Positions 21,995-44,218 of a DNA stretch of 64,000 nucleotides are shown piece after piece. The stretch lies in the NCBI RefSeq assembly GCF_000026545.1, contig NC_011601.1; one strand, given 5' to 3'. The notes under the pieces are model-generated. The model had not been told where the DNA came from and searched no databases. It worked only from the letters and a program-made list of their open reading frames with translations. How positions within the stretch are numbered: the stretch's first letter is position 1; the number at the start of each line of letters is the position of its first letter. The position numbers and the translations under genes were made by a program. The stretch comes from Escherichia coli O127:H6 str. E2348/69 (lineage in GTDB: Bacteria; Pseudomonadota; Gammaproteobacteria; Enterobacterales; Enterobacteriaceae).

Positions 21995-22031
21995 GTCGAA
22001 AGGCTCTCCCTGATTCTCTGGAGTTAATCAT

Positions 22032-23408: not shown

Positions 23409-23641
23409 TGGCAGAGAACGAACCGCTGCACCCCGCCGTTAACCCTGATCTCTACGTGAACCTTGACGAACAACGCGAAGGATACGCTCCGATTGAATCA
23501 CAGGGTTGGGATGTGCTGACGCAGAACCTGACCGGGAAAGGTCGAACTGACCCCAGCCAAACACTTAACCAGAATCCGAAACAACGCCCGCACGGCTCCG
23601 TTGGTGAGCGTCGTTGGCTTCGTAAACGTGGATTACTTTAA
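23405..23641 (+). CDS. hypothetical protein
   Basis: 78 aa with an ATGA overlap with the upstream gene. Confidence 0.5.
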   Translation: MMAENEPLHPAVNPDLYVNLDEQREGYAPIESQGWDVLTQNLTGKGRTDPSQTLNQNPKQRPHGSVGERRWLRKRGLL

Positions 23642-23653
23642 CGAGGAATTACC

Positions 23654-23893
23654 ATGAGCAAAACTATCGTATTGCTGCCGCCCCGCAAGAATACAGACTG
23701 GGCTGCACAATTAAAGCTGATTTCTGAATCGCTTGAGGTGAGTCAGGCAGACCTCGCCCACGCCTATCAGGTTGATCGTCGGGATATGGGTAAAGCGTAT
23801 CACGGTGTGCGCAAACTGCCGGAGCGTTGTGTGCCTGTTCATATGCTGTTGTTAGCGCAGGTACACGACTTTAGAGCATTATCAGGAGAATAA
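23654..23893 (+). CDS. small HTH-like protein
   Basis: 79 aa, RBS GAGGA. The segment LEVSQADLAHAYQVDRRDMGKAYHG resembles an XRE-type HTH. Confidence 0.55.
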   Translation: MSKTIVLLPPRKNTDWAAQLKLISESLEVSQADLAHAYQVDRRDMGKAYHGVRKLPERCVPVHMLLLAQVHDFRALSGE

Positions 23894-23896
23894 TTT

Positions 23897-24577: not shown

Positions 24578-24716
24578 CGCCCAACGGTGGAATGCGCCCT
24601 GCAAGACTGAGTGCGCACCAACCCGGTACTACCACACCAATCTAAGCGCATGAGTCCCCGCAAGCCGCATTCTGCGCGGCATCTGAAAGCCTGTTTTTAA
24701 TTAACCGAGGTTCGTA

Positions 24717-25130
24717 ATGAGTACCTGTAATTTCCATGCCGTGGTGCGTGTCGCTGACGTGCGCCCGGATTTCGCCTTGCCGCTGGGTAGATGCGACCAC
24801 ATTTACCCTGAGCGTGTGCAGCACGTTTTCAATCCAGACGAAGCGGTTTATATCGTTGCCCGGTCTGCCACATCCGGCACCCGCACATCTGGCGTTAGCC
24901 GTGGGCTTTCCCCTGTGCTGCCGCCGAAGATGGCCGAGCGGATGCGCGAACGTGAACGGCACGAGAAAAACCGAGTCAGACCCCGCAAGGTGATCACTGA
25001 GGCGATACGCGCTGACATTATCGATCGCTCTGCAAAAGGTCAGAAGAATCGTTACATTGCAAGCAAGGTTGGTGTGTCTGAAACCTCTGTGCGGAAGGTG
25101 TTGAACATGGCGCGTATGAGTGCGCACTAG
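24717..25130 (+). CDS. DNA-binding protein with a C-terminal HTH (regulator or small-terminase-like)
   Basis: 137 aa, RBS GAGG. The C-terminus NRYIASKVGVSETSVRKVLN resembles a resolvase-type HTH. Confidence 0.55.
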   Translation: MSTCNFHAVVRVADVRPDFALPLGRCDHIYPERVQHVFNPDEAVYIVARSATSGTRTSGVSRGLSPVLPPKMAERMRERERHEKNRVRPRKVITEAIRADIIDRSAKGQKNRYIASKVGVSETSVRKVLNMARMSAH

Positions 25131-25349
25131 TGCAAGGTAATACGTTCACCTTACTTCACGCGCACTAACCCCTGAGAACCGTGCCAGCTCTGGCCTCAAA
25201 ACGCCCATTTCGGGGCACCTCATTCCTCTTAATCGATACCGTTCTGAATCCTGCCTCGGCGGGAGGATTACGCACGCCCGCGCCATGACGATGGCCGGGC
25301 CTATCTCGTCAGTGAATCCGCTGGCACAACCTACGTAGGAGTTTTACAT

Positions 25350-26345
25350 ATGGCCGATAACATTTACTCGCCTGACCAGTTCCGCCCACATTATGGCGGG
25401 GTGGAATCTGACAATGATATTCACATCGAGGCTTATGACCGGGATGTCCAGACCCGTTTAGAGTCCAAATCCGTATTTCTGGCCGAGGGGCTGTCTACAT
25501 ACAGGCCGCTGAAAGCCAGCAACCAATATCGTGTTGATCGCCTGAGTGGTGATCTGGAGGTGAAGGGCAGAACCGCAGGGCAATCGCTGGAGCCTACCGC
25601 TGTTAAGTCGGATAAGCTGATTATCTCTGTGGATACGCTGAGTTATATCCGCATCCCGATTGACTATCAGGATGACTGGACAGCACCCACCTTTCGCTCA
25701 GAGCTGAGCCGCAATATCGGTACTGCTCACGCTAAATTCTACGACGAAGCGCACACCATCCAGCTAATCAAAGCGACTGACTTTGTACCGCCGCCGACGT
25801 TGCAACCAACGTTTAACCCGCTGACGGATAATGTTGTCTCGCTCGACCTGACAGCGGGGAGCGAAGAGGACGCCGCAAACGAATTGTCTCACGCCGTAAA
25901 AGCGGCTGCTAATCGCTTTCTCACTGAGAAAGATATTCCGGTGGCCGAGCTGGTACTGCTTATCGACCCGGCTTGGTTCAGCATCCTGATGGAACATAAG
26001 AAGCTGATGAACATCCGTTACAGCCGGGATAGTGGCAACGATTACGCATGGCGTCGAGTTGGCTATGTCGCTTGGGTACGAGTCATTGAGCTGAACAGTT
26101 ACCCGCAGGGAGCCATTACCGCGCATGAACTGGGCGCTGATTATAATGTGACCGCAGGGGAAGCGCTGACACGGGCGACGCTGTTCCGGCCTGCGTCTGT
26201 ACTTGTGACAGTCGAAGCGCAGAGCGTCATCAATCGCCAGTGGGATGAGGAACGCGAAATGACAATGGTGATGGACTCATATCGCCTGTTCAATGTTGGG
26301 CTGCGCCGCCCGGACTGCGTTATCAATTTCCGACAAGCTGCATAA
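25350..26345 (+). CDS. major capsid protein, T7 gp10-like (HK97 fold, no delta domain)
   Basis: 331 aa, RBS AGGAG. Block-wise resemblance to my recollection of T7 gp10A: FRSELSRNIGTAHA / VRSEYTSQLGESLA, LLIDPAWFSIL / FYCDPDSYSAIL, and C-terminal FNVGLRRPDCVINF / AMGHGGLRPEAAGAVVF. Confidence 0.55.
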   Translation: MADNIYSPDQFRPHYGGVESDNDIHIEAYDRDVQTRLESKSVFLAEGLSTYRPLKASNQYRVDRLSGDLEVKGRTAGQSLEPTAVKSDKLIISVDTLSYIRIPIDYQDDWTAPTFRSELSRNIGTAHAKFYDEAHTIQLIKATDFVPPPTLQPTFNPLTDNVVSLDLTAGSEEDAANELSHAVKAAANRFLTEKDIPVAELVLLIDPAWFSILMEHKKLMNIRYSRDSGNDYAWRRVGYVAWVRVIELNSYPQGAITAHELGADYNVTAGEALTRATLFRPASVLVTVEAQSVINRQWDEEREMTMVMDSYRLFNVGLRRPDCVINFRQAA

Positions 26346-26361
26346 CTGGAGGGGCTGAGTC

Positions 26362-26871
26362 ATGGTTAATGATGCTTACGCCCCTGAGCTGTTGCGATCC
26401 CTTTTCCTGTATGACCCGGTGACAGGTCGCCTGCACCATAAAGCTAGCCGATGCCGGGTTACGGCTGGCTCCTATGCTGACTCCACCCGGCGAGCTGATG
26501 GCTATCGTCAAGTTGCCCTGCGACTGGATGGCAAGCAGTACCAGCTAAAAGCCCATCGCGTAGCGTGGATTCTTGCGCATGGTGCTATTCCCCACGGTAT
26601 GCAGATCGATCACATCAACGGTACCCGTGACGATAACCGCTTATGCAATCTGCGATTGGTTACGCAGCGGGAAAACGACCAGAACCGACGCAAGGCAAGG
26701 GGGTATAGCTGGAATAAGGGCTGTAGCAAATGGGAGGCTTACATACGCGTTGGTGGTGTACTCCGTCACCTTGGCTTATTCACATCCGAAGCGGCAGCTC
26801 GTGCTGTGTACCTGAAAGCTAAAGCCAGATACCACCCCTCAACGCCTGACGATTTATTGCAGGCTGCCTAA
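26362..26871 (+). CDS. HNH homing-type endonuclease with an AP2 DNA-binding domain
   Basis: 169 aa with HRVAWILAHGAIPHGMQIDHINGTRDDNRLCNLRLVT (HNH_3 type) followed by WNKGCSKWEAYIRVGGVLRHLGLFTSEAAA (AP2-like). Confidence 0.8.
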   Translation: MVNDAYAPELLRSLFLYDPVTGRLHHKASRCRVTAGSYADSTRRADGYRQVALRLDGKQYQLKAHRVAWILAHGAIPHGMQIDHINGTRDDNRLCNLRLVTQRENDQNRRKARGYSWNKGCSKWEAYIRVGGVLRHLGLFTSEAAARAVYLKAKARYHPSTPDDLLQAA

Positions 26872-26889
26872 CCCTCGGAGGTTCCATTA

Positions 26890-27315
26890 ATGGCTGATGA
26901 AAAGCCGATTAGGTCGCTGGCAGGTGATGACCCACGCCGCCAGCAGTACGCCGAACTGTTGGCGCAGGCTAGCCGCATGACTATTCCCCGGCTGCATCCG
27001 GGCGATGCTAACAGTGTGATGAGTCAGCTTGCAACGATGCTTGGCGCACCTGTCCCGATAGTCGGTGCTATGACTGAGCACGCCGCTGCATGGCGTGCCT
27101 GTCTGCTTGAGCAAGGACTTGGCGAGCTTCTGGATGGCTTGAGTAAACAGGTGCTGACCATCTTCTTTCTGCTCTGCTGGAGAGACAGCGCCTTGCGATT
27201 GGCTGGTAAGCAAAAGAAACGGCTTACAGCCGCCAGCGAGGGTTTGACCATTGAGCAATACCGGGCAATGCACCCGGCTTACAGAGAGGATAAAGAACAT
27301 GATAACCACGATTAA
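26890..27315 (+). CDS. hypothetical protein
   Basis: 141 aa, RBS GGAGG 8 nt upstream. Confidence 0.55.
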   Translation: MADEKPIRSLAGDDPRRQQYAELLAQASRMTIPRLHPGDANSVMSQLATMLGAPVPIVGAMTEHAAAWRACLLEQGLGELLDGLSKQVLTIFFLLCWRDSALRLAGKQKKRLTAASEGLTIEQYRAMHPAYREDKEHDNHD

Positions 27316-27598
27316 ATTAAGGTGGCGGTACATCGAGACGCCGCCAATGACTGGCGCACTCGCTGACCTGAAACAGTGGGTAATGAATGCCGTAGAGCCT
27401 GAGCTTGAGGCTGAATTTCGTAAGCTGCTGGGGCAGATGCGTCGCAATGGTATCAGTGATGGGCGCGTAAATGCGGTGGCTGATGAGCTTTATGCTCTGG
27501 TATGCCAACGCCAGCGCGAAGAATACGAAGCCTGCAAGCGGGCTGCCTCTGACAATGGAGACTTTGAATCATGGTTACACGGACAGACCAGCTACTAA
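27299..27598 (+). CDS. hypothetical protein
   Basis: I prefer the start at MITTIKLRW (27299), which has RBS AGAGAGGA upstream, over the track start at 27251. 99 aa. Confidence 0.5.
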   Translation: MITTIKLRWRYIETPPMTGALADLKQWVMNAVEPELEAEFRKLLGQMRRNGISDGRVNAVADELYALVCQRQREEYEACKRAASDNGDFESWLHGQTSY

Positions 27599-27996
27599 GA
27601 AAAGCTATGAGGGGCTATCTGGAACACCTTGGCAACATGCCGCTGGCGGAACGGATTACAAATGCTGCTGTATTCGAAGATGTGTATCGCTTTTTGTTGA
27701 ATGGTTCCGGGCGGCTGGAGCTGCGCCGCGCTGACGTGGCTGCCGTCCGTGTCTTCCTTTGGAACTATCAATACCGCCGCTGTGCTGTGACAGGTAAGCC
27801 GCTGCGCCTTGCGTCTGCCGTTCTGGATCACTGCCACCGAACCGGGCGCGTGCGTGCTGTGGTGCATCGTTCTGCTAACGCTGCTGAGGGAGGCCGCTAC
27901 GTTGGGCGGACGTGTGGTGTTAGCGTTACGAATCTAAGGGCTATGATTGGCAGCTATCGCAAGCAATACACTGGTATTGGCATGTTATATCCATAA
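27571..27996 (+). CDS. endonuclease VII-family (HNH-like) nuclease
   Basis: 141 aa. CAVTGKPL...VLDHCHRTGRVRAVVHRSANAAEG resembles the Endonuclease_7 motif (C-x2-C ... DH-x-H-x-TG-x-VRG..C..CN..G). Confidence 0.6.
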   Translation: MVTRTDQLLRKAMRGYLEHLGNMPLAERITNAAVFEDVYRFLLNGSGRLELRRADVAAVRVFLWNYQYRRCAVTGKPLRLASAVLDHCHRTGRVRAVVHRSANAAEGGRYVGRTCGVSVTNLRAMIGSYRKQYTGIGMLYP

Positions 27997-28037
27997 CTGC
28001 GGGGTAATAAACCCCGCCGAAATAGTAGCGTAGCCAC

Positions 28038-28940
28038 TCAAACAGGAATGTTGTAGTAATGACAAATTGCATTAGTTAGTAGAGCTGGTGCAGCAGACGC
28101 TGCAATATTTAGCGTCCCCGCATATGCTTTACCAATCATATTTACAACCCACTTCCCAAGGCTATCACTGAAATTGTCCGGGGTAGTTGGGGCGGGTGAT
28201 TCTTGTATAGCTTGATGAAGGCTCTTAATATCTTCATCATTAGCGCCCCAATCCTTGAGCTGCTTTTCAAGCGAGTTGAAGTCTCCAGCGTTGACAGTAT
28301 TATTTTGTGAAATGTCCCCGTTACCAGAGCCAATAACGCCAGCATTGTTTACGTTGCCATGAATGTTGGTCACGTTATGGACAGTCATTGGCGCTACCTC
28401 TTTTTCTCTTAATGAAAACTGTAACCCTTCGCCTAAAATACCCTTTGACTCTAAGTCTAAAGACCAGTCGAGGATCTTATTCCTAACGGTAGTAATTACA
28501 TGTTCTAGTACACCAGCGCTTATAACCCATACCATCTCAGTCTTTTGTCCGATACTTTGAGCTAATGTATCAGCCATCCAATCCGGGAGAGGTAAAAAAG
28601 GGTTTTCTCCTTTATTGCTCATCTTTTTTATAGATGATATTGATTCTGTAATGTGAAACGTTGATACCATTGCATTTAATTCCGCGTCGTTGAAGTTGAC
28701 CACAAGCGGAACCCAGCTCTGATGTTGGGGACTATATGCTTTTAACTGCGATTGACCTTTCCTGTATTCAGGAACCGTATCAAAGCTGGGATAGCCATTT
28801 AATTCGAGCTGTATCCACTCGGTCAAATCGCTGAGGCCGAGCTTCACTGCAATCATTTTGGCCTTCATGAGTACAGATAAAATGTCGGAGTCGGGATCGC
28901 ACGCTAGTGCTTGAAGTTCAAGAACTGGTGAGTTAGCCAT
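28038..28940 (-). CDS. AbiTii-like abortive-infection family protein
   Basis: 300 aa. The N-terminus LELQALACDPDSDILSVLMKAKMIAVKLGLSDLTEWIQLELNGY matches the AbiTii N-terminal pattern as I recall it. It lies adjacent to the integrase. Confidence 0.55.
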   Translation of the reverse strand: MANSPVLELQALACDPDSDILSVLMKAKMIAVKLGLSDLTEWIQLELNGYPSFDTVPEYRKGQSQLKAYSPQHQSWVPLVVNFNDAELNAMVSTFHITESISSIKKMSNKGENPFLPLPDWMADTLAQSIGQKTEMVWVISAGVLEHVITTVRNKILDWSLDLESKGILGEGLQFSLREKEVAPMTVHNVTNIHGNVNNAGVIGSGNGDISQNNTVNAGDFNSLEKQLKDWGANDEDIKSLHQAIQESPAPTTPDNFSDSLGKWVVNMIGKAYAGTLNIAASAAPALLTNAICHYYNIPV

Positions 28941-29027: not shown

Positions 29028-30239
29028 TTAGATGTTTATTCCTTCATGCTGGATGAGTTCGACATACTTACCGATCTCTATAGGGGAAGCTGCATTTTTC
29101 GAGTAAGTTTTGAAGCTCTCTGTACTCCCGCGCTCATGACCGACGAGCAGGGCAATACGATCTTCTGGCACTTGAGCACGGTCGAGCTGTTGCACAAAAG
29201 CATGGCGGAGTGAGTGAAACACTTTTCTCTCTGCGGCAGGCTCGCCAAGAGCTTTACGCTTTGCTCGCGTGAATTGCTGCGTATGCCACGTTGAGCGCTT
29301 CCCATCGGCCCGGTCTGTTATTGATGCGTGATAGAACAGAAAACCGCTATGTGTGGTCTTGAGCAATGACTTCACGAGAGGGATTATCTTGCTGTGTACA
29401 GGGACGATTCGCGCCGCGCTCTTAGTCTTCCCCTCGGTGATCTCAAAGCACAATATACCCTCGATAGTTTTAATACTGCTTTCACGTAGCGTACATATCT
29501 CATTGATCCGCATACCGCTGTATGCACCAATAGCCGTTACCGCCTTCATCTCGTCATCAAGCAAGGCATAGACCTTTGCCAGCTCTCCCGGTGCGAAGAC
29601 TTCATAGCTGACCTTGCTGCTTTTTGCTTCGAGCGCATGACCGCGCCAAGGATTGTCCTGTGGTGCATCGTGATAGCGATTGCGTGCCAGATCCCATATC
29701 TGCGCCAGTGCGCTTATATAGTTTTGGATAGTTTGGGGCGCTCGCTCAGTTTTGAGCTTATCTAACCAGCCTGTAACTATGGTTCGGTTAATATCCCGCA
29801 ACTGAACATCTTTCTTTTTCAAGTGGGTTAACAGCACCTCTACGGCTTTGTTGGTCTTGGATAACGTGGTTAGCTTTCGCTTCTCGCTGTATTGAAGCAG
29901 GTACAAATCACGCATTTTTAGCAAGGAAGGGCAAGCCTGAATCGATGCACCAAACGATGCGGGGGCTTCCTTGGCGTACACACTGACACGGCGTAGCTCA
30001 TCAATGATTTGGTCTACAGATGAGCCGCCTTGTGGCTTTAGCAGATTCCGTAAGCGAGTCCATTCCAGAGCAATAGCATCTCGAAACAATCGCGCTTGGC
30101 GTATGTCTCGTGTTCCTGTGCTTTTCATAAAGTAGCGCTTCCCTTGGAACAGGTGGCGCATATAGCTGGGAATAGCTATCCGCACGAGGTAATTCCCGCA
30201 GGGATCTAAAACTAGATAACGATCTCTCTTGAAACTCAT
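29028..30239 (-). CDS. tyrosine-type site-specific integrase
   Basis: 403 aa with a catalytic set consistent with R (SGMRINEI), HSLRH, LVGH and a C-terminal Y (FKTYSKN). Its start lies 133 nt from attR. Confidence 0.9.
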   Translation of the reverse strand: MSFKRDRYLVLDPCGNYLVRIAIPSYMRHLFQGKRYFMKSTGTRDIRQARLFRDAIALEWTRLRNLLKPQGGSSVDQIIDELRRVSVYAKEAPASFGASIQACPSLLKMRDLYLLQYSEKRKLTTLSKTNKAVEVLLTHLKKKDVQLRDINRTIVTGWLDKLKTERAPQTIQNYISALAQIWDLARNRYHDAPQDNPWRGHALEAKSSKVSYEVFAPGELAKVYALLDDEMKAVTAIGAYSGMRINEICTLRESSIKTIEGILCFEITEGKTKSAARIVPVHSKIIPLVKSLLKTTHSGFLFYHASITDRADGKRSTWHTQQFTRAKRKALGEPAAERKVFHSLRHAFVQQLDRAQVPEDRIALLVGHERGSTESFKTYSKNAASPIEIGKYVELIQHEGINI

Positions 30240-30627: not shown

Positions 30628-33600
30628 TTATATCTGCCCGCCTACACCTTTAAACTTCTCAATAAACGCGACGATCTTCTGGAAAACCGTCTGTTTTTTC
30701 GTCTTATATTGCGGGTTTAACGGACTGAGTTTTGGCAATGTCTCGTTTAATTCCGTGCCATTTTCGGTGGCGTATTCGCGTTTTAAAGACGTGCGAATAT
30801 AGCGTTTCGCCGCCTCTTCATTGAGATTTTCTTCTTTAATCAACGCTTCTGCTTCACGTTGCTGTTCGCGTTGAGCAAAGGTAAAGAACGCGTCAATGAT
30901 GCTGGCTTTATCCGGCAAATCATCCAGGTTCGTTTGCTGAATAAAATCGACCACCAATCCTTCTTTAGCACGGTTCCCAAGGCTTGAACGAATTAAGCGT
31001 TTGACCTCTTCGGTCATTTCGCCCTTACCTTTGTTTTGTCTGTTGTGTTCGAAAATCAGTCCAAGGATATAATCCAGGTTTATTTCCTGAGACTTCAGCA
31101 AATCGACCTCAAAAACCACGTCATCCCAGTCGGTGGTTGATTTTTCTTTTTTGTCAGCTTCTTTCTCACGGCGCTGCCAGTCACGAATATCGTTATAGGC
31201 AGAACGATAATCCTGAATCTTGCGTTCAGCAGGGAGACGAATCGTTTGCAATTCAGCGAACTTTTCATCATCCACATAATGTTCTGCTTTGAATTTTTCT
31301 ACTGCAACAGGATCGCTAAGATCGATTTGTTGCAGGGCTTTCAGCGTGGCAAATTCATCATAGTTTTGCAGGATGTTCTCGGCACGCAGGTATTCACCAA
31401 ACAGTTTAACGAAGTCTTTCTTCTCTTTTTCACTTTCAATACTGGCAGGGTCAGGGAACCGTTGTTCCAGTTCTGCAACTACTGCCATAAAGCCGCGCTT
31501 AGCTTCACCAGTAGCAGCATCAGTAAAGCCTTCCATATACTCTGCATAACTCTTTTCTAACACTACATTTTTGGTGTTTTTGTCACCAAACAACGTTATG
31601 GCATCGATGGTTGAGCGTTCCAGATCGCGGAAAGTGACGATATTACCGAAGGTTTTAGTAGCGTCATAAATGCGGTTGGTGCGGGAAAATGCCTGCATCA
31701 GGCCGTGAAAACGCAAGTTTTTATCGACGAATAGCGTGTTCAATGTTGGAGCGTCGAAGCCGGTTAAAAACATCCCCACGACAATTAATAGATCGATATC
31801 CTGATTTTTAACCCGTTGGGCTAAATCACGATAGTAGTTCTGAAAACCGTTACTGTCGGTGCTGAAGTTAGTTTTAAAATAGCTGTTATACTCACGAATT
31901 GCAGCATCAAGAAACTCTTTAGCACTGCTGTCCATTGCGCTGGTATCAAAAGTTTCATCAGAAATTTCACCAATGGCATTTTGTTCTTCATTGGCGGTAA
32001 AGGAGAAGATTGTCGCAATACGCAGCGGTTTATAGGTAGCCGATTTATTAGCGGCTTCTTCTTGTAACCGTTTAAACGTCGCATAATAGGCTTTCGCGGC
32101 ATCCACGCTGCTCACTGCCAACATAGCATTAAAACCTTTTGAGCCAGGGAAGGTACGGTGGGTTTTCTGGCGGAAATTATTCAGAATATATTGCGTGATT
32201 TCCTGAATACGCATGGGATGAAGAAACGCCTGCTGATTTTCAGCCGCACTTAGTTTTTTCTCGTCAGTTTCTGTCTCTAAAGACTTAAACTGTGGTCGCA
32301 CATCGTTGTAGTCCACCTTGAATTTGAGCACTTTTTCGTCACGAATCGCATCGGTAATTACATACGAATGCAATTCACGACCAAATACGCTGGCGGTTGT
32401 TTCTGAGCCTAAGGCGTTTTCCGGGAAAATAGGGGTGCCGGTAAAACCAAACTGATAATAGCGTTTGAATTTCTTCTTCAGGTTTTTCTGCGCTTCTCCA
32501 AACTGGCTGCGGTGGCATTCATCAAATATAAACACCACTTGCTGATTATATACAGGCAGGTCGCTTTCTGCTTTCATCAGGTTATTGAGTTTCTGAATAG
32601 TAGTGACGATAATTTTGTTATCGTCCTTATCCAGATTTCGTTTAAGGCCTGCGGTATTTTCCGAGCCGTTGACGCTGTCTGGCGAAAAACGCTGATATTC
32701 CTTCATGGTCTGGTAATCGAGGTCTTTCCTGTCGACCACAAAGAAGACTTTATCAATAAAGTCCAGCTCTGTTGCCAGACGCGCGGCTTTAAAGCTGGTG
32801 AGGGTTTTACCAGAACCGGTAGTGTGCCAGATATACCCACCGCTTTCCGGTTTTGACCAGTTCTTCGCTGTAAAGGAACTCTTAATTTTCCACAGAATGC
32901 GCTCGGTGGCGGCAATCTGGTACGGTCGCATCACCAGTAGCGTCTGACTACTGTCAAAAACGCTGTAGTTCACCAGAACATTCAGCAGAGTATGTTTCTG
33001 GAAAAAGGTAGCGGTAAAGTCTTTGAGGTCTTTAATCAGCGTGTTGTCTGATTTCGCCCAGTTCATGGTGAAGTCAAAACTGTTTTTATCGCGCTTTGTC
33101 GTGTTGGCAAAATAACGGGTATCGGTGCCGTTAGAAATGACAAACAGTTGCAGATACTTAAACAGGGAATTTTCGCTGTTAAAACTCTCTTTACTGTAAC
33201 GATGTATCTGGTTGAAAGCCTCACGAATCGCCACCCCGCGTTTTTTTAGTTCGATTTGCACCAGCGGTAAACCATTAACCAGGATCGTGACGTCATAACG
33301 GTTAGCATGAGAACCCGTCTGTTCAAACTGCTGGATAATCTGCACCTTATTGCGCATGAGATTCTTTTTATCTATCAAATAGATGTTCTCAAGTCGCCCG
33401 TCGTCAAAAATAAAGTCGCAGATATAGTCGATATGGATTTTACGGGTTTTATCCAGAATACCATCGCTGGGGTTGTCCAGATACTGCTCCGTGAAGCGCC
33501 GCCACTCGCTGTCATTAAACATCACACCATTGAGGCTCTGAAGCTGTTCCCGAACATTAGACAGCATTGCCGACTGTGATTTTACGGAAATAAATTCATA

Positions 33601-33744
33601 ACCCTGATTCCGCAGGTCCTGAATCAGTTCACGTTCCAGGTCCGATTCGCTCTGGTAGCTGTCGCTTGTTTGCTCAGCTTTGATGTACTTATCAAGGACG
33701 ATAAAGTTATTGGATTCAGCAATGGTGTGTGTTTGATGAGTCAT
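30628..33744 (-). CDS. hsdR: type I restriction enzyme R subunit, type IC (EcoR124I family)
   Basis: 1038 aa, near-identical over its length to my recollection of EcoR124I HsdR ([24 protein letters not shown]...). Motifs TGSGKT and FDECHRS. Confidence 0.95.
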
Positions 33745-33865
33745 AGCGCATCCTTTGTGCCGCCTGGCAAGAGCCGGAAGGGCGTTAAGAGTGACTTCCG
33801 GCGCGTAAAAAATAGTCTATATACTGACCGGGTGTTAAGGTGGCCCGATCGGTAGCAATGGTCAA

Positions 33866-35088
<1,223 letters not shown>

Positions 35089-35092
<4 letters not shown>

Positions 35093-36645
35093 TTTTGCAC
35101 CTCGCAGCCTTCAATTTCAGCCACAATCGCATCAATATCTTTACGCAACTGGTCGATTTTGCTAACCGTAGTTTTAAGCTCTGCATTTAGCTCAGCAATA
35201 TTGATAATTTCGCGGTTATCTTTCGCTTCTACATAGCAGCTCACCGACAGGTTATAGTCATTAGCGACAACGGTCTCAAACGCGACAGATTTCGCCAGAT
35301 GAGCAACATCTTCCTTGCTGGCAAATACCTGCATAATCTGTTCGATATGGGCATCGGTCAGGATATTGTTGTTGGTCTCTTTTTTGAATAGTTCGCTGGC
35401 ATCAATAAACTGAACTTTGGTATCCGTTTTATGTTTAGACAGCACCAGAATATTTACGGCAATGGTGGTGCCAAAGAACAGGTTCGGTGCCAGTGAAATC
35501 ACGGTTTCGACATAGTTATTGTCAACCAGATACTGACGGATTTTCTGCTCCGCGCCGCCACGGTAAAAAATGCCCGGGAAGCAGACAATCGCAGCACGAC
35601 CTTTGGCAGAAAGATAGTTCAGCGCATGTAATACAAACGCAAAGTCAGCTTTGGATTTGGGGGCCAGAACGCCAGCCGGGGCAAAACGCTCATCGTTAAT
35701 CAGCGTCGGGTCATCGCTGCCAATCCATTTCACCGAATACGGCGGGTTAGAAACGATGGCATCAAACGGTTTTTCATCTCTGAAGTGCGGCTCAGTCAGC
35801 GTATTGCCCAGCTTGATATCAAACTTGTCGTAGTTGATGTTGTGCAAAAACATGTTCATACGTGCCAGGTTATAGGTCGTATGGTTGATTTCCTGTCCGA
35901 AAAAGCCTTCTTCAATGATATGGTTATCAAACTGCTTTTTAGCCTGCAACAACAGTGAGCCGGAACCCGCTGCCGGGTCGTAGATTTTGTTAACGTTGGT
36001 CTGCCCGTGCATAGCCAGTTGTGCAATCAGCTTGGAGACGTGCTGCGGTGTAAAGAACTCACCGCCTGACTTACCGGCATTTGCCGCATAGTTAGAAATC
36101 AGGAACTCATAGGCATCACCGAACAGGTCAATCTGATGTTCGTTGAAGTTACCAAGTTTTAACCCTTCAACCCCTTTCAGAACCGCAGCCAGGCGGGCAT
36201 TTTTATCTTTAACGGTGTTACCCAGGCGGTTACTGGTGGTATCGAAATCAGCAAACAAACCTTTGATGTCTGCTTCTGAAGGGTAGCCGTAAGCAGAACT
36301 TTCGATAGCAACGAAGATGCTGTTTAAATCTGCATTCAGTCTGTCATTGGTATTTGCTTTCGCCGCTACGTTGCAGAAAAGCTGACTGGGGTAGATGAAG
36401 TAGCCTTTAGTTTTGATGGCATCGTCTTTAATATCATCAGTAATTACGCTGTCATCCAGTTTCGCATAACAGATACTGTCATCACCGGCTTCAATATAGC
36501 TGGAAAAATTTTCGCTGATAAAACGGTAGAAAAGCGCGCCCAGAACGTATTGCTTAAAATCCCATCCATCGACCGAACCTCTGACATCGTTAGCAATTTG
36601 CCAGATTTGGCGATGAAGCTCCGCGCGCTGCTGAAGACTGGTCAT
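35089..36645 (-). CDS. hsdM: type I N6-adenine DNA methyltransferase M subunit
   Basis: 518 aa with motif [11 protein letters not shown] and motif IV NPPY ([10 protein letters not shown]). Its stop overlaps the hsdS start. Confidence 0.95.
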
Positions 36646-36951: not shown

Positions 36952-37785
36952 ATGCAAACAGAAGCTGAAGTCTTAACCGATCACAACGAGATAATTCGCT
37001 CGACCAATATTGAGCGTATCGTCACAGGACGTGATAGCGCACTGAAGCTGATAGCGACGCTAATCCAAAAACTGGATGATATCTCCAGTCTGACATCCAG
37101 TATTGGCGGTGATGTGGCTGGAACCTGGGGAATGCGTAATGGATATGCCTTTGACTGCTGGCTGATGCAACCAACCGACAAAGCGATGTCGGCGATCACC
37201 CGCAATATCGATCGCAGCATCTGGCGCGATCTCATGCTGAAGTCCGGGATGTTGACTCTGATGGATGCCGAAGCCCGCAGTCAGTGGGCAAAGAACCTGG
37301 AGGAGGGCGATCTCCCGGCGATTAGCGAAGCCAACATCCTGAGTACCTTTGAACAACTCCACCACAATAAGCATGATGTTTTCGAACGTGGGATTATCAA
37401 TGTATTTAAGGGATTGAGCTGGGATTACAAAACCAATAATCCCTGTTATTTCGGTAAGAAGATTATCGTTAACAATCTGGTGAAGCATGACCGATGGGGT
37501 TACAGCCTGCACTGGGGCTGGCGGCGAGATCAGCTTGCCGATCTGGAACGGATGTTCTATCTGCTGGATGGGAAGGCCATTCCCGATAACCGGCATGATG
37601 TTGCGATTCGGTTTATGGACTTCGTTAGTGCTCACCCGCATGAGCAGGTATTTAATGACGATTTATTTGTCATCCGCTATTACCAGAAAGGCAGTGGACA
37701 CATCACATTCAAGCGACTGGATCTGGTGGATAAGATGAATGACATTGTGGCGAAGCACTATCCGTCAGCGTTATCAGCAAAATGA
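36952..37785 (+). CDS. DUF4942-like protein, unknown function
   Basis: 277 aa, divergent from hsdM. The C-terminal pattern FVIRYYQKGSGHITFKRLDLVDKMN resembles DUF4942-type proteins as I recall them. I see no catalytic motif. Confidence 0.5.
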   Translation: MQTEAEVLTDHNEIIRSTNIERIVTGRDSALKLIATLIQKLDDISSLTSSIGGDVAGTWGMRNGYAFDCWLMQPTDKAMSAITRNIDRSIWRDLMLKSGMLTLMDAEARSQWAKNLEEGDLPAISEANILSTFEQLHHNKHDVFERGIINVFKGLSWDYKTNNPCYFGKKIIVNNLVKHDRWGYSLHWGWRRDQLADLERMFYLLDGKAIPDNRHDVAIRFMDFVSAHPHEQVFNDDLFVIRYYQKGSGHITFKRLDLVDKMNDIVAKHYPSALSAK

Positions 37786-38146
37786 ATGTCGTATGTTTGC
37801 TGTCAAAATGTCGTTACTGGAACCCTCTGAATTTCGGCATATCCATTTACTGGAAATAATACCTACCTGAAAAACCGTTGATTCCCTATGCAACTAGAAA
37901 CCGCACACAGGTTGAAAAAACGAGTAGCTATTTTACGTCTGAAAGAATGCTATAGCCTTCTCTGAGAGCCACCAACATCATGCGTTTTGCAGTTCAAAGT
38001 CATCAGATAAATGTGGTGGCTCCAGGGCAGAAGGTAATTTCAGGATGAAAGTTATTTTTTTTATCACAAAATTTAACATTTTTGAGATTAATCCGATAAG
38101 ATAAGGCTATCCCAATTTCCCTCCCCCCTACATATTGGATTAAGAG

Positions 38147-40201
38147 ATGGTTCAGGATTCATCAGCATTAGCCCCTTTCTTTCGTGCTCAAATTGAAAAA
38201 AATAATCAATACAATTCAGTTTGGGGCAAACACTACCGCGAGCTTGTAGAACAGATTCAGGCCGAAAAACCAAACTTTTCTGAAGCCACGATTCGGCAGG
38301 TATGGTATGAACGTGACAATGGTGTCTCCAGCCTGATGCAAGGTGGGATGTCATTGGTTGAATTTGAAAATGCACAAAAAGACCTTCTAACGCTCACCCG
38401 TCAGATAGCAGAAGAGTGTACACAAGAAAATTATAATCGGGTCATTGAACGTCTTATCAAACTTAAAGCGGACGGAGTATTAAATAAGGTATATAGGGCT
38501 CTTTGTAATCGTGCTTTTGCAGCAATATACCCATCAAAAATTAGCAGTGTCGTGAATGTTAATAATTTTTTTAGTTGCTACAATTATTGCAACAACCATT
38601 TCCAGCTAGGTCTTTCCGGAGAACGGGAGTGGCTGGCTCGCAATGTTGATCTTAAAGAAACGCTAAATCGTGCGCTGGGTGATGATATCGACCCTATTGA
38701 GCTGAATATGTCACTTTGGCATCTCTATGCGTATGAAATTCAGGATAAAAATGCTATCGGTTTAGTTGGAAGCGAAAGTGCTTTACAAGAAAATGAGCAA
38801 GAAGATGATGTTATAAGTTCGCCATTGCCTAAAAACACAATTCTCTATGGCCCGCCAGGTACAGGTAAAACATATCGTACTATTGAGCTTGCTGTACAAA
38901 TTTGTGATCCGATCGCTTACTCCCTGCAGGAGGGTAAGGATGAGAGTGAAAAACGTCGCGAGTTGAAAAAGATTTATGATCAGCTTATCAAAGATAATCG
39001 AGTGCGTTTTATCACCTTTCATCAGAGCTTTGGTTATGAAGAGTTTATTGAAGGTTTAAGAGCTGAGACTACTGATGACGGTAATGTAAAATACGAAATA
39101 AAGGCAGGTATTTTTAAACAGATATGCGAGGATGCCGCCTTTGGTCATGCTGGTGCGCAGGAAATGTTGGATAGCGCACTTACTCGCCTACAAGAACGTT
39201 TATCTGAAGGTGAAAATATCACGCTGGAAACACAACAGGGTAAGGCCTTCCAGCTGACGTATAAAAGTCAAACCAACTTTGGAATTTTTCCGTCACAATC
39301 GAAAAAAGAGGATTTAGGACAGGGTTACAATGCCTATTTGAAGGATATTCGGCAAGTTTATCAGGATCCACGAGCAAAAGTACATAATCCATCTTATGTA
39401 CGCAGTATCCTTAACTATTTAATTAATCAACGTTATCTGCCTCTGAATACTCAGAGCGTAGCTTCAGAAAAAAAGGAAAACTATGTTCTCATTATTGATG
39501 AAATAAATCGGGGTAATATTTCAAAAATTTTTGGTGAACTAATTACCCTTATTGAGCCATCTAAACGGGCTGGTGAGCCAGAATCGCTTAGCGTATTGCT
39601 GCCATACTCTTCCACTCCATTTAGTGTACCGAATAACCTTTATTTAATTGGTACCATGAACACTGCTGATCATTCGCTTACTGCACTTGATACTGCACTA
39701 CGTCGCAGATTTGATTTTGAAGCGATGCTGCCAGATATTACTGTTCTGAAAGATACTGTCATTAAAGGTATTGATCTGCCTCGTCTATTGCAGACGCTTA
39801 ACGATCGCATCCAGGTTTTATACGATAGAGAACATATGCTGGGGCATGCTTTTTTTATCCCTGTTGTGCAGGCAAAAGAAGACGAAGCTCTGGCATTTGA
39901 AAGATTCAAACGGATTATGCGAAATAAGATACTACCATTGCTGGAAGAATATTTTTACAATGACTGGCAAAAAATTCGCATGGTACTGGCTGATAACCAA
40001 AAAGAGGAAGCACCAGATCTTCAATTTGTACGTGAGGTGAAATACCAGAAAAAGTATGCCGATCTCTTTGGTGATAACGGAACAGATGACTTGGGAACCA
40101 GTTTTCACCTGGCAGCAGAGGATGACAACGTTTGGGACAATCCAATCGCCTGGCAGCAAATTTATGCACCTCAAAAAGAAAAACGCAGGAGTGCGGAATG
40201 A
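38147..40201 (+). CDS. McrB-family AAA+ GTPase with a non-canonical N-terminal domain and an internal insertion
   Basis: 684 aa with Walker A GPPGTGKT (aa 235-242), FITFHQSFGYEEFIEG, Walker B YVLIIDEINRGN (aa 446-457) and the McrB signature MNTADHS. Confidence 0.85.
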   Translation: MVQDSSALAPFFRAQIEKNNQYNSVWGKHYRELVEQIQAEKPNFSEATIRQVWYERDNGVSSLMQGGMSLVEFENAQKDLLTLTRQIAEECTQENYNRVIERLIKLKADGVLNKVYRALCNRAFAAIYPSKISSVVNVNNFFSCYNYCNNHFQLGLSGEREWLARNVDLKETLNRALGDDIDPIELNMSLWHLYAYEIQDKNAIGLVGSESALQENEQEDDVISSPLPKNTILYGPPGTGKTYRTIELAVQICDPIAYSLQEGKDESEKRRELKKIYDQLIKDNRVRFITFHQSFGYEEFIEGLRAETTDDGNVKYEIKAGIFKQICEDAAFGHAGAQEMLDSALTRLQERLSEGENITLETQQGKAFQLTYKSQTNFGIFPSQSKKEDLGQGYNAYLKDIRQVYQDPRAKVHNPSYVRSILNYLINQRYLPLNTQSVASEKKENYVLIIDEINRGNISKIFGELITLIEPSKRAGEPESLSVLLPYSSTPFSVPNNLYLIGTMNTADHSLTALDTALRRRFDFEAMLPDITVLKDTVIKGIDLPRLLQTLNDRIQVLYDREHMLGHAFFIPVVQAKEDEALAFERFKRIMRNKILPLLEEYFYNDWQKIRMVLADNQKEEAPDLQFVREVKYQKKYADLFGDNGTDDLGTSFHLAAEDDNVWDNPIAWQQIYAPQKEKRRSAE

Positions 40202-41508
40202 AATCTTCCAGTCATTTCACTGTGTTCGAATACGGGCATTTAGTGAGTGAGGAAGGTGATGCCCGTATAAATAATGCGGTAGTGCTACCTGCAGACCTAT
40301 TTAAATGGCTTGAGCTGCGCTGTCTGAAAGACGATGCTGATAATACTCATCGTTTGCTCACCCTTAGCAGCCGGAATGGAGTAAAAACGCTGCAGGTAAA
40401 AAACTATGCAGGAGTAATCTCACTGCCAGGGGGGCGATTTCTCGAAATCCTGCCTAAAACAGGTCAGGATAATGAGGATACTGTTCGTCAACAATTACTG
40501 ATGATGTTACGTACGTTAAAATCATTTCGTCATATTGCCTCCTCTGAATCTGGCGTCAAAATATCTAAAATGCCTCTGATGGATATCTTTATTCAACAAT
40601 TTATAGAGAGCGTGCGTAAGATTGTGCAGAGAGGGTTAAAACGTGACTATTTACGTCAGGAAGATAATCTTCCATGGATGAAAGGAAGATTACGGATCTC
40701 TGCACAATTAAGCAAAAACTGTATTAGGCGGGATCGTTTTCAGGTGGAGTATGACGAGTACAGCGTCAATCGTCTGGAAAACCGGATACTCAAAACTGCA
40801 ATCAATAAGATTAGTCGCCAGACCAGTAATCCACAATTATTACAGCAGATAACACAGCTGCAGTTTCACTTTGAAAATATCACGTCAGTTCATGATGCTT
40901 ATATAGCTTTCGAGCAGTTACACTTTGATAGACAAATGCATCACTATGAGCAAGCATTAGCGTGGGCGAAGATGATTTTATTGGGCGATTCTCCACACTG
41001 TATGTATGGGGATGTTAATGCTTTTTCACTGCTTTTCCCGATGGAGGCTGTTTTTGAATCTTTTGTGACGACATGGATGCGTTATCGTTATTATGATAAA
41101 TGGCGAGTGGACGCACAGGTAAGTTCAAAAAATCTGATTAGTTATAACGGTAAAGCTTTATTTAAGCTGCGGCCTGATATTTGTTTACGGCCTCGTAAAA
41201 GTACTACTGGTTCAGTTATTACCTGTGATGTTAAATGGAAGATAGTAAATGGCAGAAAGGACAGTCTTGAACAATCTCAAGCCGATCTCTACCAAATGCT
41301 TGCCTATGGATTGAATTACCAGGAGGGGGAAGGTGATATGATTTTGATATACCCCTATCATAACGGATTTAATCAGCCATCTCCTCATCCTTATGAATTT
41401 AGCCATCAGAAGGAAAATAGGTTACGTTTATGGGTTGTACCTTTCTTTATTGGCGAGAGTTTACAAACATCAGAGTTGCGTTTTCCTGGTGGGGCTGAAT
41501 TTATTTAG
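40198..41508 (+). CDS. McrC-like nuclease subunit
   Basis: The ATG at 40198 overlaps the mcrB-like stop (ATGA) and has RBS AGGAG 6 nt upstream. 436 aa with a PD-(D/E)xK-like LRPDI...CDVKWK. Confidence 0.8.
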   Translation: MKSSSHFTVFEYGHLVSEEGDARINNAVVLPADLFKWLELRCLKDDADNTHRLLTLSSRNGVKTLQVKNYAGVISLPGGRFLEILPKTGQDNEDTVRQQLLMMLRTLKSFRHIASSESGVKISKMPLMDIFIQQFIESVRKIVQRGLKRDYLRQEDNLPWMKGRLRISAQLSKNCIRRDRFQVEYDEYSVNRLENRILKTAINKISRQTSNPQLLQQITQLQFHFENITSVHDAYIAFEQLHFDRQMHHYEQALAWAKMILLGDSPHCMYGDVNAFSLLFPMEAVFESFVTTWMRYRYYDKWRVDAQVSSKNLISYNGKALFKLRPDICLRPRKSTTGSVITCDVKWKIVNGRKDSLEQSQADLYQMLAYGLNYQEGEGDMILIYPYHNGFNQPSPHPYEFSHQKENRLRLWVVPFFIGESLQTSELRFPGGAEFI

Positions 41509-41570: not shown

Positions 41571-42443
41571 TCACCCCCTAAAAACCTCTTTCCGATGCCA
41601 CTCTACAAACACCTCATAAGGGTAATTTTTACGTACCTGCGGCAAAGCAATAGTTTTCCCGTCAAAATCCCAGAATAGTTTCTCAACGATCCCTCCGCCG
41701 TTTACCGCATCTGATACCAGTACCCGCATATTTTCGTCCAGGCCAATCGATCCTTTATCAAAGGCTTTATGGTGAATTGCGCAAAGCGCCAGGCCATTAG
41801 GAATTTCACAAGGACCGCCGTGCTGTTTCCATTTTATATGCGCCGCTTCAAGCGCGACGGTGGTGTCGTCGTGGCGCATATTAAAGCCACATATCGCGCA
41901 CTGGTAGTTATAAGCGCGTAATACATTTTTGCGAAATAACGGGTCGCGCTGTTTACGGATTTGCTGGAGGTCAAAACCCAATTCGTCAGCAATTTCCTCC
42001 TGAATACTCTCGGTAAAATGCGCTTCGAGTATCTGTTGCGCCAGGGTATTGATGAGTTTTTTATTGCCGGTTACCAGGGCGTAGTGCTGTTCATCGAAAC
42101 CGCCTGCAACGCGGTGTTCGGTCAGTTCCTTCACTGGCGGTTGTCGGCTGCTCCCTGCTGTTGAGCAAAGCCCGGCATTGTGTAATTGCCAGAATCCGTC
42201 GCCTTGTAATCGCCAGAACGGCATATCAGGTCGGTACTGTGAACGCTGTGGCCCAAAACGTTCCAGTAAACTGTGCAGAGGTTCGTAGATTTCCGAGCCA
42301 TAATCGAAAAGGCGCGGATGTCCATTCAGGTATCCCGCTAATACGTATAGCAATAACAATGGCTTATGCGGCGCGCGCTGTTCACCCTTGTGCCAGATTT
42401 TTATATTGGCAATTGCCTGCTGTAGCGATTTACTGGAAGCCAT
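41571..42443 (-). CDS. HNH (HNH_2-type) endonuclease with an N-terminal putative modified-DNA reader domain
   Basis: I prefer the start at MASSKSLQQ (42443, RBS AGGGA). The C-terminus is YQCAICGFNMRHDDTTVALEAAHIKW...NGLALCAIHHKAFDKG. The N-terminus has RAPHKPLLLLYVL ... PFWRLQGDGFW. Confidence 0.7.
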   Translation of the reverse strand: MASSKSLQQAIANIKIWHKGEQRAPHKPLLLLYVLAGYLNGHPRLFDYGSEIYEPLHSLLERFGPQRSQYRPDMPFWRLQGDGFWQLHNAGLCSTAGSSRQPPVKELTEHRVAGGFDEQHYALVTGNKKLINTLAQQILEAHFTESIQEEIADELGFDLQQIRKQRDPLFRKNVLRAYNYQCAICGFNMRHDDTTVALEAAHIKWKQHGGPCEIPNGLALCAIHHKAFDKGSIGLDENMRVLVSDAVNGGGIVEKLFWDFDGKTIALPQVRKNYPYEVFVEWHRKEVFRG

Positions 42444-42579
42444 TGATATCCCTGGCAGTGAAATAATTGCGATCATGCTCGCAAATTTTCTTCTGTTCAA
42501 GCCTGCAAGTGAAGATATATTACTTTGATCTCATTTGTTTTTTTGCTGCCTGCTCTGAGAACGTATAAGGATATTCCCC

Positions 42580-43230
42580 ATGAATAAACTTCCCGACCAT
42601 CTTCCGCGGCGGTATATCATCGAAGCTATCCATTTATGGGATGCGGGAGAAACTCATCAGTTCCAGCCTGCACGGTTGTATTAGATTGAATATCATGGCC
42701 GACGTTACCCCTCGAAGGCGATTGCTGGCATCGCAGCGACATTGATGACGGGGACGCAATTTACCCCTGCGGATTTCACCGGCGGAATAAAATCTAAATG
42801 CGTCAAACTACTCATAGAGCAGGGATTTCATATTCATCAGGATAAAGCCGCTGCGGCTCCCATAGCCGACGTTCTGTTCCCGGATGAGTTGCCGTCGCAG
42901 GAGACCTACGTTGAAGGTGCGGCGATAAAGGTGACAGTAAACCGCTATGAACGCGATAAAAAGGTCCGAGATAAAGCGGTCGAATATCATGGATGCCAGT
43001 GCAACGTATGCGGCGTTGATCTGGTGAAGATCTATGGTGATATTGCTGAAGGCTTTATCCATATGCATCACCTGGTGCCGCTTTCAGCCATTAAAGAGGA
43101 TTACCAGCTGGATCCAGTTAATGATTTGCTGCCTGTGTGTCCTAATTGCCATGCGATGTTGCACCGACGCAAACCACCGTTTACGCCGGAGGAGTTAAAA
43201 GCGTTGATGGATGCGAATAAATCAAATTAA
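42580..43230 (+). pseudogene. McrA-like HNH endonuclease interrupted by an in-frame TAG at codon 35
   Basis: ATG at 42580 with RBS AAGGA. The frame runs MNKLPDHLPRRYIIEAIHLWDAGETHQFQPARLY-TAG(42682-42684)-IEYHGRRYPSKAIAGIAA... and continues into track ORF 42742..43230, which carries CQCNVCG...HMHHLVPLS...LLPVCPNCHAMLH. Confidence 0.7.
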
Positions 43231-43237
43231 TGAACGC

Positions 43238-44218
43238 TCACCTTTCGCGCCAAAACTGCAAAATTGCTTCTACAAACCTGTCAGAAATAATCCCCCGACG
43301 GGCTGCCGCGCTGAAATGACTGCTTCGCAGTGCCGTCGTCCAGTTCTCCGGTGACCGGTACGCTGAACCGTAATATCCCGTGCTTAAATCGTCCGGGTCT
43401 TCATCAGGCGCGTTCGTCAGTCCTCTTTCACCTTGTTGCTGGAAGTCGACGAAAATAATATTGGCTAAAACATTATTTTGATAATTGCCATAAATAGCTT
43501 CATACGCATGAGGGAAATTTTCTTTCCAGTACCAGGTGGTATCGCCGCAAAACCACGGTGCGTCAGTAATATTATTAAGCTGAGAATGGTATTGTTTTAG
43601 ATCCCTACGAAAGGCTTCAACCATATGATTAAAGTGTTGAGGATGTGACGCGTAGTCACTGGTCATTAAGTCAAATTCGCCTTGCATCCAGCATACGCCG
43701 AGGAATTTGTTCTGCGGATTTTTTGCCAGTGCGGCTCGCGTTCTGCTCACTAAATCCTGGTATAGCGGAGTATCCGTTCCCCAACGACAAGCATCATGGC
43801 TGGCTCCGTGCCGTTCTGAATATGTCCCTTCGCTGCCCGCGGTAAAAGCCGATCCGCCACGGCAACACGGAACGATGAGAACCCCTGCATTATCAGGAAT
43901 AAAGGGCAGTAATTTCCGTGCTATATGCAGTGCCTGGCCAACGGTGCCGTACTGTGTTTGATGATTCGTTGCCAGAGGATGGTGATAACCCTGCATATCC
44001 TGAACATCGTGTGGGCAGTGAGTCAGTGGAATAATGTCGTTAAAGTGACATGACGGGCCTCCGGGATGCGTATGCGCAAATCTCGCTAATTGTTTAATTC
44101 TGGGATGAGGCGCATCTTCCTTGTCCGGTAATGGTAGTCCTTCGCCATACGCCATGGCATTAGATTGACCAGCAACGGTAAGAACATAGTAATAATCGGG
44201 CGATATTATCGCGTTCAT
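43238..44218 (-). CDS. nanS: 9-O-acetyl-N-acetylneuraminate esterase
   Basis: 326 aa (MNAIISPDYYYVLTVAGQSNAMAYGEG...) matching my recollection of NanS/YjhS. Confidence 0.92.
   Translation of the reverse strand: MNAIISPDYYYVLTVAGQSNAMAYGEGLPLPDKEDAPHPRIKQLARFAHTHPGGPSCHFNDIIPLTHCPHDVQDMQGYHHPLATNHQTQYGTVGQALHIARKLLPFIPDNAGVLIVPCCRGGSAFTAGSEGTYSERHGASHDACRWGTDTPLYQDLVSRTRAALAKNPQNKFLGVCWMQGEFDLMTSDYASHPQHFNHMVEAFRRDLKQYHSQLNNITDAPWFCGDTTWYWKENFPHAYEAIYGNYQNNVLANIIFVDFQQQGERGLTNAPDEDPDDLSTGYYGSAYRSPENWTTALRSSHFSAAARRGIISDRFVEAILQFWRER

Follow-up and report, generated by a model that had tools for sequence, protein, structure and literature searches.

McrBC is the textbook modification-dependent restriction enzyme, and the combination of a sensor with a nuclease is the standard layout of type IV enzymes. 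The McrBC readers characterised so far are, to our knowledge, of only four types: SRA-like, YTH, EVE and B3. Here we describe an McrBC-like gene pair from the enteropathogenic Escherichia coli O127:H6 strain E2348/69, located at positions 38147-41508 of a 64,000-nucleotide stretch of its chromosome (contig NC_011601.1; ‘the window’, to which coordinates refer unless otherwise stated). The N-terminal domain of its McrB, hereafter N200, is none of the four characterised reader types. The reading towards which we lean is of a two-gene, McrBC-family type IV system, probably functional, in which N200 would serve as a non-catalytic reader of non-canonical bases and an insertion of around 110 residues in the GTPase as an accessory module.

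Comparison with described systems

Among solved relatives, the AAA+ core is best matched by that of TgMcrBC from T. gammatolerans (PDB entries 6UT3-6UT8; e-value of 1e-52). It shares the two-gene layout of N-terminal reader, linker and GTPase followed by McrC, as well as an NxxD consensus loop, and TgMcrB also has an insertion, of 63 residues, between helix α2 and Walker B. EcoKMcrBC, from the same species and protein family, is alike in its GTPase motifs, in the PD-(D/E)xK nuclease site of McrC, in its position within a defence island and in its association with type I restriction-modification (R-M) genes. It differs in having an SRA-like reader of the DUF3578-type McrB-N family, whereas the E2348/69 McrB lacks an MrcB_N match, in lacking the insertion of about 109 residues and in lying in the immigration control region rather than at leuX.

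A different point of reference is provided by the END nucleases (END-PaCF1 and END-Mag among them), which restrict phages with hypermodified DNA and in which an inactivated, all-α EndoIII/Ogg-like domain was shown experimentally to be the sensor (PMC12191111, 2025 preprint). N200 is likened to that sensor by fold and by fusion partners, rather than through a comparison of their sequences. The END sensor, which responds to non-canonical bases, is reported in fusions with PLD nucleases, with a PD-DExK nuclease of the NucS-like kind and with ‘the McrB-like GTPase’ (PMC12191111); N200 is found fused to McrB or to PD-ExK nucleases. Furthermore, the END domains are detectable with HHpred against EndoIII and the Pfam OGG-like families, while N200 gives no signal with HMM (hidden Markov model) or hhalign comparisons, and the END nucleases are single-chain, GTP-independent enzymes where the E2348/69 system is a two-gene McrBC.

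CoCoNuT systems also combine an McrB-like GTPase with McrC homologues, and some have helical N-terminal regions. However, they are marked by an NxD motif, long coiled coils and additional nucleases or helicases. The NxxD motif, the compact, globular domain of ten helices and the presence of just two genes led us to reject a CoCoNuT or other coiled-coil McrB assignment for the E2348/69 pair. Finally, LlaI, BsuMI and LlaJI bind DNA through a separate subunit, R1, or are accompanied by methyltransferases, whereas in E2348/69 the reader is fused to the motor and no methyltransferase is conserved beside the pair. Reader swaps and insertions in the GTPase are well established in this family, an EndoIII-like sensor fused to McrB is already in print, and NCBI already names the two products as McrB and McrC family proteins. 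We therefore class the system as an uncharacterised member of the canonical-architecture McrBCs of the NxxD clade.

The GTPase and nuclease subunits

The mcrB-like gene (38147-40201, + strand; WP_000249522.1, annotated ‘McrB family protein’) encodes 684 residues. An initial annotation, made from the DNA sequence alone, had considered its AAA+ core to be of unmistakable McrB type, and this is amply supported: every motif quoted there was found and, using HMMER, the protein matches the TgMcrB structure 6UT3 with an e-value of 1e-52 and EcoK McrB with one of 6e-30. A match to the Pfam family AAA_5 scores 1.7e-13. Walker A (GPPGTGKT, residues 235-242; 38849-38872, +) is followed by the FITFHQSFGYEEFIEG motif at residue 288, the Walker B region (LIIDEINRGN, residues 448-457; 39488-39517, +) and the NxxD-type consensus loop (MNTADHS, residues 504-510; 39656-39676, +). 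The AAA+ small subdomain or lid lies at approximately residues 545-684 (39779-40198, +) and corresponds to the McrB_lid family (PF28529), a match precomputed in Pfam for this exact protein cluster and for its relatives. Its position was deduced from truncated homologues and from the alignment of residues 544-621 with residues 293-362 of TgMcrB; an N-terminal location for PF28529 was rejected since both the truncated homologues and the name of the family place it at the C-terminal lid. Judged by homology, the catalytic set of Walker A, Walker B (DE), NxxD loop, RRR arginine-finger stretch and lid is complete.

The mcrC-like gene (40198-41508, +; WP_000842795.1) encodes 436 residues, of which residues 65-386 match PF10117, the McrB-binding region, with an e-value of 3.2e-100. 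The mechanically called open reading frame (ORF) begins at a TTG at 40132, the RefSeq start being the ATG at 40198. The latter is almost certainly the true start: it overlaps the mcrB stop codon (gcggaATGAaa) and is preceded by AGGAG, an arrangement that confirms the translational coupling that had been suggested. The PD-(D/E)xK motif, comprising RPD at residues 325-327 and CDVKWK from residue 343 (41170-41241, +), is intact, with D327 followed by D344-V-K346 as originally read. Taken together, the PF10117 and TgMcrB matches and the coupling of the genes leave the assignment of the pair to the McrBC family secure. Both proteins nevertheless score far below the NCBIfam equivalog cut-offs, McrB reaching 116.8 bits against 637 for the EcoK entry NF008457 and McrC 107.8 bits (e-value of 6e-31) against 338 for NF007277. 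The pair is therefore a member of the family and not an orthologue of the K-12 enzyme.

The consensus loop fits the definition MNxxD[R/K]S with a single deviation, a histidine at position 509 where Arg or Lys is expected, which the initial annotation had quoted without remark. Arginine occupies the equivalent position in 70 of 71 sampled relatives and the histidine is unique among these 71 family members; each of the three E. coli strains compared (the E2348/69 window, BE2-5 and CFS3246) has it. In TgMcrB and EcoK McrB the equivalent arginine stacks on Tyr530/Phe428 across the tight interfaces and contacts McrC, and its mutation to alanine raises basal GTPase activity two- to threefold (Niu et al. 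2020). It is possible that H509 modulates activity, rather than being a sign of decay.

The N-terminal domain and its relatives

N200 covers residues 1-205 (38147-38761, +) and is connected to the AAA+ core by an acidic linker (residues 206-228; 38762-38830, +), predicted to be disordered, with a pLDDT (predicted local distance difference test) below 50 and an isoelectric point (pI) of 4.05. An AlphaFold2 model, for which the input comprised 36 diverse homologues, shows ten helices over the 205 residues, with a pLDDT of 87 and a pTM (predicted template modelling score) of 0.82. The domain matches no Pfam family, either in a scan of the library or in newer precomputed annotations, where PF28529, the lid family, is the sole addition, and MrcB_N (PF12102) is not matched at e ≤ 0.01. 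Readers of the EcoK, YTH, EVE and B3 types could be rejected for the E. coli protein, none giving a Pfam match; EVE occurs only in some longer relatives. The initial description of the N-terminal region as helical and unrelated to the methylcytosine-binding domain of EcoK McrB is therefore upheld, but its novelty was overstated since the domain is a widespread, mobile module that recurs in at least 406 sequence clusters.

These clusters, defined at 50% identity, were retrieved by searching 1.84 billion representatives with an N200 HMM; for 213 clusters the match reached e ≤ 1e-10. A homologue search with the N-terminal domain alone retrieved just 11 short fragments and was uninformative. Near-invariant positions are W26, Y30, W53, N58, R122, F124, P129, W162, N187 and W191. 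N200 is present in the McrB proteins of many Gammaproteobacteria and also in single-chain PD-(D/E)xK nucleases. Where it is linked to McrB, the architectures seen are N200-McrB, as in E. coli, N200-EVE-McrB, and N200-McrB preceded by a further domain of some 115-160 residues. Outside McrB we found N200-PD-(D/E)xK proteins of about 350 residues along with Mrr_N-N200-PD-ExK and DUF3427-N200-PD-ExK arrangements. The further N-terminal domain is seen in many marine gammaproteobacterial homologues (P0069, P0071 and P0073 among them) and has no Pfam match.

Given that sensor plus nuclease is the standard type IV design, N200 behaves like a sensor of DNA or of its modification. The single-chain proteins with N200 and a C-terminal PD-(D/E)xK domain (P0231, P0243, P0226, P0227 and P0235) are all annotated as hypothetical and share a conserved HTTVD motif. 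Such proteins might have retained glycosylase activity or might represent the ‘PD-DExK-iEndoIII’ type of END nuclease.

Possible relationship of N200 to DNA glycosylases

The best structural matches of N200 are, marginally, to glycosylases of the Ogg2/EndoIII kind. In a Foldseek search MjOgg and TmOgg filled the top three places, at values that are not significant (e-values of 0.07-0.3 and template modelling scores of about 0.27-0.30). Sequence methods did not reveal a corresponding similarity of profile to HhH-GPD/OGG-like families: HMM searches of the PDB with two N200 alignments found no glycosylase, and comparison of 37 N200 members with Pfam at e ≤ 10 found no glycosylase family. An hhalign comparison of N200 with EndoIII homologues returned a probability of 0.1%, a weak test given the very low diversity of the EndoIII alignment.

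A conserved N200 segment, R122-x-F-A-A-x-x-P129, is followed by a helix with its N-cap at position 137. This position is Asp in 13 of 18 PD-ExK fusions but variable in the McrB fusions (Asn in 21, Ser in 14, Asp in five, also Gly and Ala), the E. coli protein having Asn. Equating position 137 with the catalytic Asp of glycosylases depends on motif reasoning rather than residue-level superposition. With that proviso, the pattern is as would be expected of a Gly/Pro-loop-Asp signature with catalysis lost in the McrB branch, and adds a little to the structural matches.

On balance, then, the model and these comparisons suggest that N200 is probably a HhH-GPD-like, catalytically inactive sensor. 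From the Ogg2/EndoIII-like fold and the failure to conserve the Asp in McrB fusions we infer a non-catalytic domain, which would probably be a base-flipping reader of non-canonical bases. In this respect it appears analogous to the iEndoIII sensor of the END nucleases, and the two may possibly belong to the same family.

The insertion before Walker B

The insertion module comprises residues 331-445 (39137-39481, +), between helix α2 of the AAA+ domain and the Walker B strand. Its secondary structure elements are, in order, a helix, four strands and two helices, giving an α/β composition, followed by a disordered tail. HMMER alignments confirm the size of approximately 110 residues that had been estimated for it, giving 109-115 depending on the comparison. 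Positions 330 and 440 align with chain residues 105 and 107 of EcoK McrB, so that some 109 residues here correspond to around one in EcoK, not to the 15 or so that the initial annotation had given. In TgMcrB, positions 330 and 445 align with chain residues 101 and 165, and 63 residues lie between. The suggestion that the insertion is novel also went too far: besides the TgMcrB example at the same site, insertions have been reported as frequent in the GTPase domains of McrB proteins and as likely to encode domains for specificity (Bell et al. 2024, PMC11090510). In TgMcrB the AAA+ insertions overlap the surface on which the DNA-binding subunit of LlaI docks (2026 LlaI preprint).

A fold search with the insertion gave no informative match and no DNA-binding fold. 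The segment is mildly basic (pI of 8.9, family median of 8.2). The proteins P0052 and P0056, which are 59-64% identical and come from independent clusters, retain N200 and an adjacent McrC and lack exactly the insertion segment. Conversely, in P0115 and P0118 the insertion is present and N200 absent, their N-termini being unrelated. The insertion is accessory and separable, a module with which this family has elaborated a site already known to vary. Because N200-bearing proteins work without it, a role in docking or in shaping the DNA path is favoured over one in primary recognition. Neither N200 nor the insertion matches any McrB subfamily that has been characterised and whose target is known, the kind of match that had been named as telling against the initial annotation.

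Distribution and constraint

The 3362-bp mcrBC sequence is 100% identical to the E2348/69 chromosome. Of 5426 complete E. coli genomes, 315 carry it, in every case on the chromosome and at ≥99% identity; in 285 of the 315 a single place covers at least 80% of the query. In several strains the genes are broken by the insertion sequences (IS) IS903B or IS1, which suggests occasional loss of the system. McrB and McrC genes are adjacent in all relatives examined, from Enterobacter, Vibrio, Morganella, Zymobacter and metagenomes, and their place is often directly downstream of type I R-M genes. The EcoK branch of McrB is likewise associated with type I R-M (Bell et al. 2024, PMC11090510). The Vibrio mediterranei locus, in which hsdR-hsdM-hsdS-mcrB-mcrC are succeeded by a small ORF without a Pfam match and then by YjiT/YjiV-like genes, resembles the K-12 immigration control region.

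Comparison with the Zymobacter orthologue, whose McrB is 78% identical, gives ratios of nonsynonymous to synonymous substitution (dN/dS) of about 0.06 (N200), about 0.05 (insertion) and 0.28 (linker). Saturation of dS at this distance limits the safe statement to dN being far below dS. Constraint on the linker appears relaxed, by this measure, relative to both N200 and the insertion.

In the E. coli strains examined a DUF4942 gene lies directly 5′ of mcrB on the same strand (in E2348/69 at 36952-37785, +, encoding 277 residues). A DUF4942 remnant of 36 residues (5709-5819 of the Zymobacter sequence) precedes the orthologous, intact mcrBC in Zymobacter, and from this the gene and mcrBC seem to have travelled as one cassette. 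DUF4942 is absent beside mcrBC in the Enterobacter, Morganella, Vibrio and metagenomic relatives. Comparison of the protein with Pfam, NCBIfam, PADLOC and the PDB gave no match to a methyltransferase family, and neither a SAM (S-adenosylmethionine)-binding nor a (D/N)PPY motif is apparent by eye. For these reasons, and since it is not conserved outside the closest clade, DUF4942 was rejected as an obligatory partner or methyltransferase.

A mechanistic reading and its alternatives

By extension from the solved EcoK and Tg complexes, the E2348/69 McrB would assemble into a GTP-bound, asymmetric hexamer, with a single McrC threading a finger through its pore and stimulating GTP hydrolysis. Tethered N-domains would bind recognition elements, complexes at two sites would translocate, and the DNA would be cut by the PD-(D/E)xK site of McrC. 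The replacement of the SRA-like McrB-N by N200, on its acidic disordered linker, should then amount to a change in target recognition. It is reasonable to suppose, with the initial annotation, that the target is other than the classical RmC (purine followed by a methylated cytosine), and by comparison with the END nucleases N200 may read a mark such as a bulky or hypermodified base. The insertion, placed on the AAA+ large subdomain, could shape sensor docking or the DNA path on the face of the hexamer.

A more specific version of this proposal can be formulated. N200 would be a dead Ogg/EndoIII base-flipping sensor, allowing a GTP-driven McrBC to recognise hypermodified bases, such as 7-deazaguanine derivatives and glycosylated or otherwise decorated pyrimidines, and not 5-methylcytosine (5mC) or 5-hydroxymethylcytosine (5hmC). 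The insertion would act as a family-specific platform that sets the position of the sensor, or of the DNA, on the face of the hexamer, and some 6% of complete E. coli genomes would then possess a second, mechanistically distinct and broadly anti-hypermodification McrBC. We put this forward tentatively, and regard it in full as doubtful.

Several observations weigh against the favoured reading of a functional system with N200 as a base reader. The domain is acidic (pI of 5.5, family median of 5.6), an unusual property in a domain that binds DNA. It co-occurs in relatives with an EVE reader or with the extra N-terminal domain, of around 140 residues, so that it may not be the sole or main specificity element. 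Among the 150 N200 matches listed there is no fusion to PLD, a partner of the END sensor. H509 takes the place of a conserved interface arginine in the E. coli allele. Lastly, a literature search on the accession, and for experimental tests of the system or its close relatives, returned nothing.

Some of these same points would be explained if N200 were instead a helical adaptor or regulatory domain, concerned with oligomerisation, partner binding or the sensing of a phage protein. Specificity would then come from the insertion or, in relatives, from EVE or the extra N-terminal domains, leaving the short E. coli form with relaxed or different targeting. The acidity of N200 beside a basic insertion fits this picture, as do the further N-terminal domain of some 115-160 residues or EVE domain beside N200 in many homologues, the proposal that specificity domains reside in GTPase insertions (Bell et al., PMC11090510) and the marginal nature of a glycosylase fold match that sequence does not support. 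Yet N200 is fused directly to PD-(D/E)xK domains in chains of about 350 residues that have no other candidate reader, and in McrB it stands where every canonical McrB characterised has its DNA-binding domain. Nor can the insertion be a universal reader, being absent from P0052 and P0056, which keep N200 and McrC, and it has no match to a DNA-binding fold. We consider an adaptor role for N200 unlikely.

That what E. coli carries is a remnant, decaying or hypomorphic, with restriction lost through disruption by R509H of an arginine that serves both the tight interface and the anchoring of McrC, strikes us as improbable. The histidine is indeed peculiar to E. coli among the 71 family members and occurs in all three strains compared, the arginine has the structural roles in TgMcrB and EcoK McrB outlined above, and IS elements have inserted at the locus in several genomes. 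However, both ORFs are full length, 285 of 315 genomes have at least 80% coverage at ≥99% identity, and the catalytic residues are intact (Walker A and B, N505, D508 and RRR in McrB, D344 and K346 in McrC). Moreover, alanine at the equivalent position raised basal GTPase activity rather than abolishing it, and a histidine can still stack. Very much less probable than the system of base reader, motor and nuclease is a LlaJI-like, methyltransferase-associated McrBC that cuts unmodified DNA, with DUF4942 as a protective or specificity partner. This we think highly unlikely, even though the DUF4942 gene is the direct upstream neighbour of mcrB, on its strand, in the E. coli strains examined, has left its remnant ahead of the Zymobacter genes and could recall the McrB branch associated with predicted methyltransferases (Bell et al., PMC11090510). 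The protein resembles no methyltransferase by family or by motif and is missing beside the genes of the Enterobacter, Morganella, Vibrio and metagenomic relatives, and its truncation in Zymobacter next to an intact mcrBC indicates that it is dispensable.

The locus offers a candidate for a fifth type of McrBC reader, in a tractable and well-studied E. coli strain, and one that belongs to a large gammaproteobacterial family shared with single-chain nucleases. Its main interest lies in being an experimentally convenient entry to this candidate sensor family. Natural variants, in which the insertion or the extra readers are present or absent and residue 509 is H or R, furnish material for its dissection. 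Were the reader to sense hypermodified phage DNA, the idea behind the END nucleases would be extended to a translocating motor, the system would help to account for the host range of phages on enteropathogenic E. coli and related strains, and it might become a reagent for mapping unusual DNA modifications. Should the target prove to be 5mC or 5hmC after all, it would be merely another McrBC variant.

The leuX island

The pair sits in the leuX island, downstream of tRNA-Leu(CAA) (15258-15342), a site described in reviews as the most heavily occupied defence hotspot of E. coli (PMC12707154). Between a P4-type integrase (29028-30239, −) and the DUF4942 gene is a type I R-M system comprising hsdR, hsdS and hsdM (30628-36645, −). 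A consensus scan weakly suggests a candidate sigma-70-like promoter 5′ of mcrB (TTAACA-18-TAAGAT; 38073-38102, +), given that it returned nine sites for the region where chance alone would give 11.

Convergent to mcrC lies a gene for a phosphorothioate-DNA-binding HNH restriction endonuclease (41571-42500, −; NF045808, e-value of 2.5e-131); no dnd or ssp modification genes were seen among the ORFs scanned, those at roughly 15-46 kb of the window. Next comes a second HNH gene (42742-43230) and, beyond it, a truncated nanS, then nanM, nanC and fim. The nanS homologue (sialate O-acetylesterase; 43238-44218, −), for which the annotation of E2348/69 and other strains gives a truncated pseudogene, forms the apparent right-hand edge of the inserted defence cluster.

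The cargo between the tRNA and the integrase (15860-28000) includes a resolvase (18315-18884), a DEAD/ResIII helicase (20150-21994), an HNH_3 endonuclease (26362-26871) and an endonuclease VII-like protein (27571-27996), together with several ORFs lacking Pfam matches. Adjoining the island integrase is a gene for an AbiTii-domain protein (28038-28940, −; Pfam e-value of 4e-44), an additional candidate abortive-infection defence gene.

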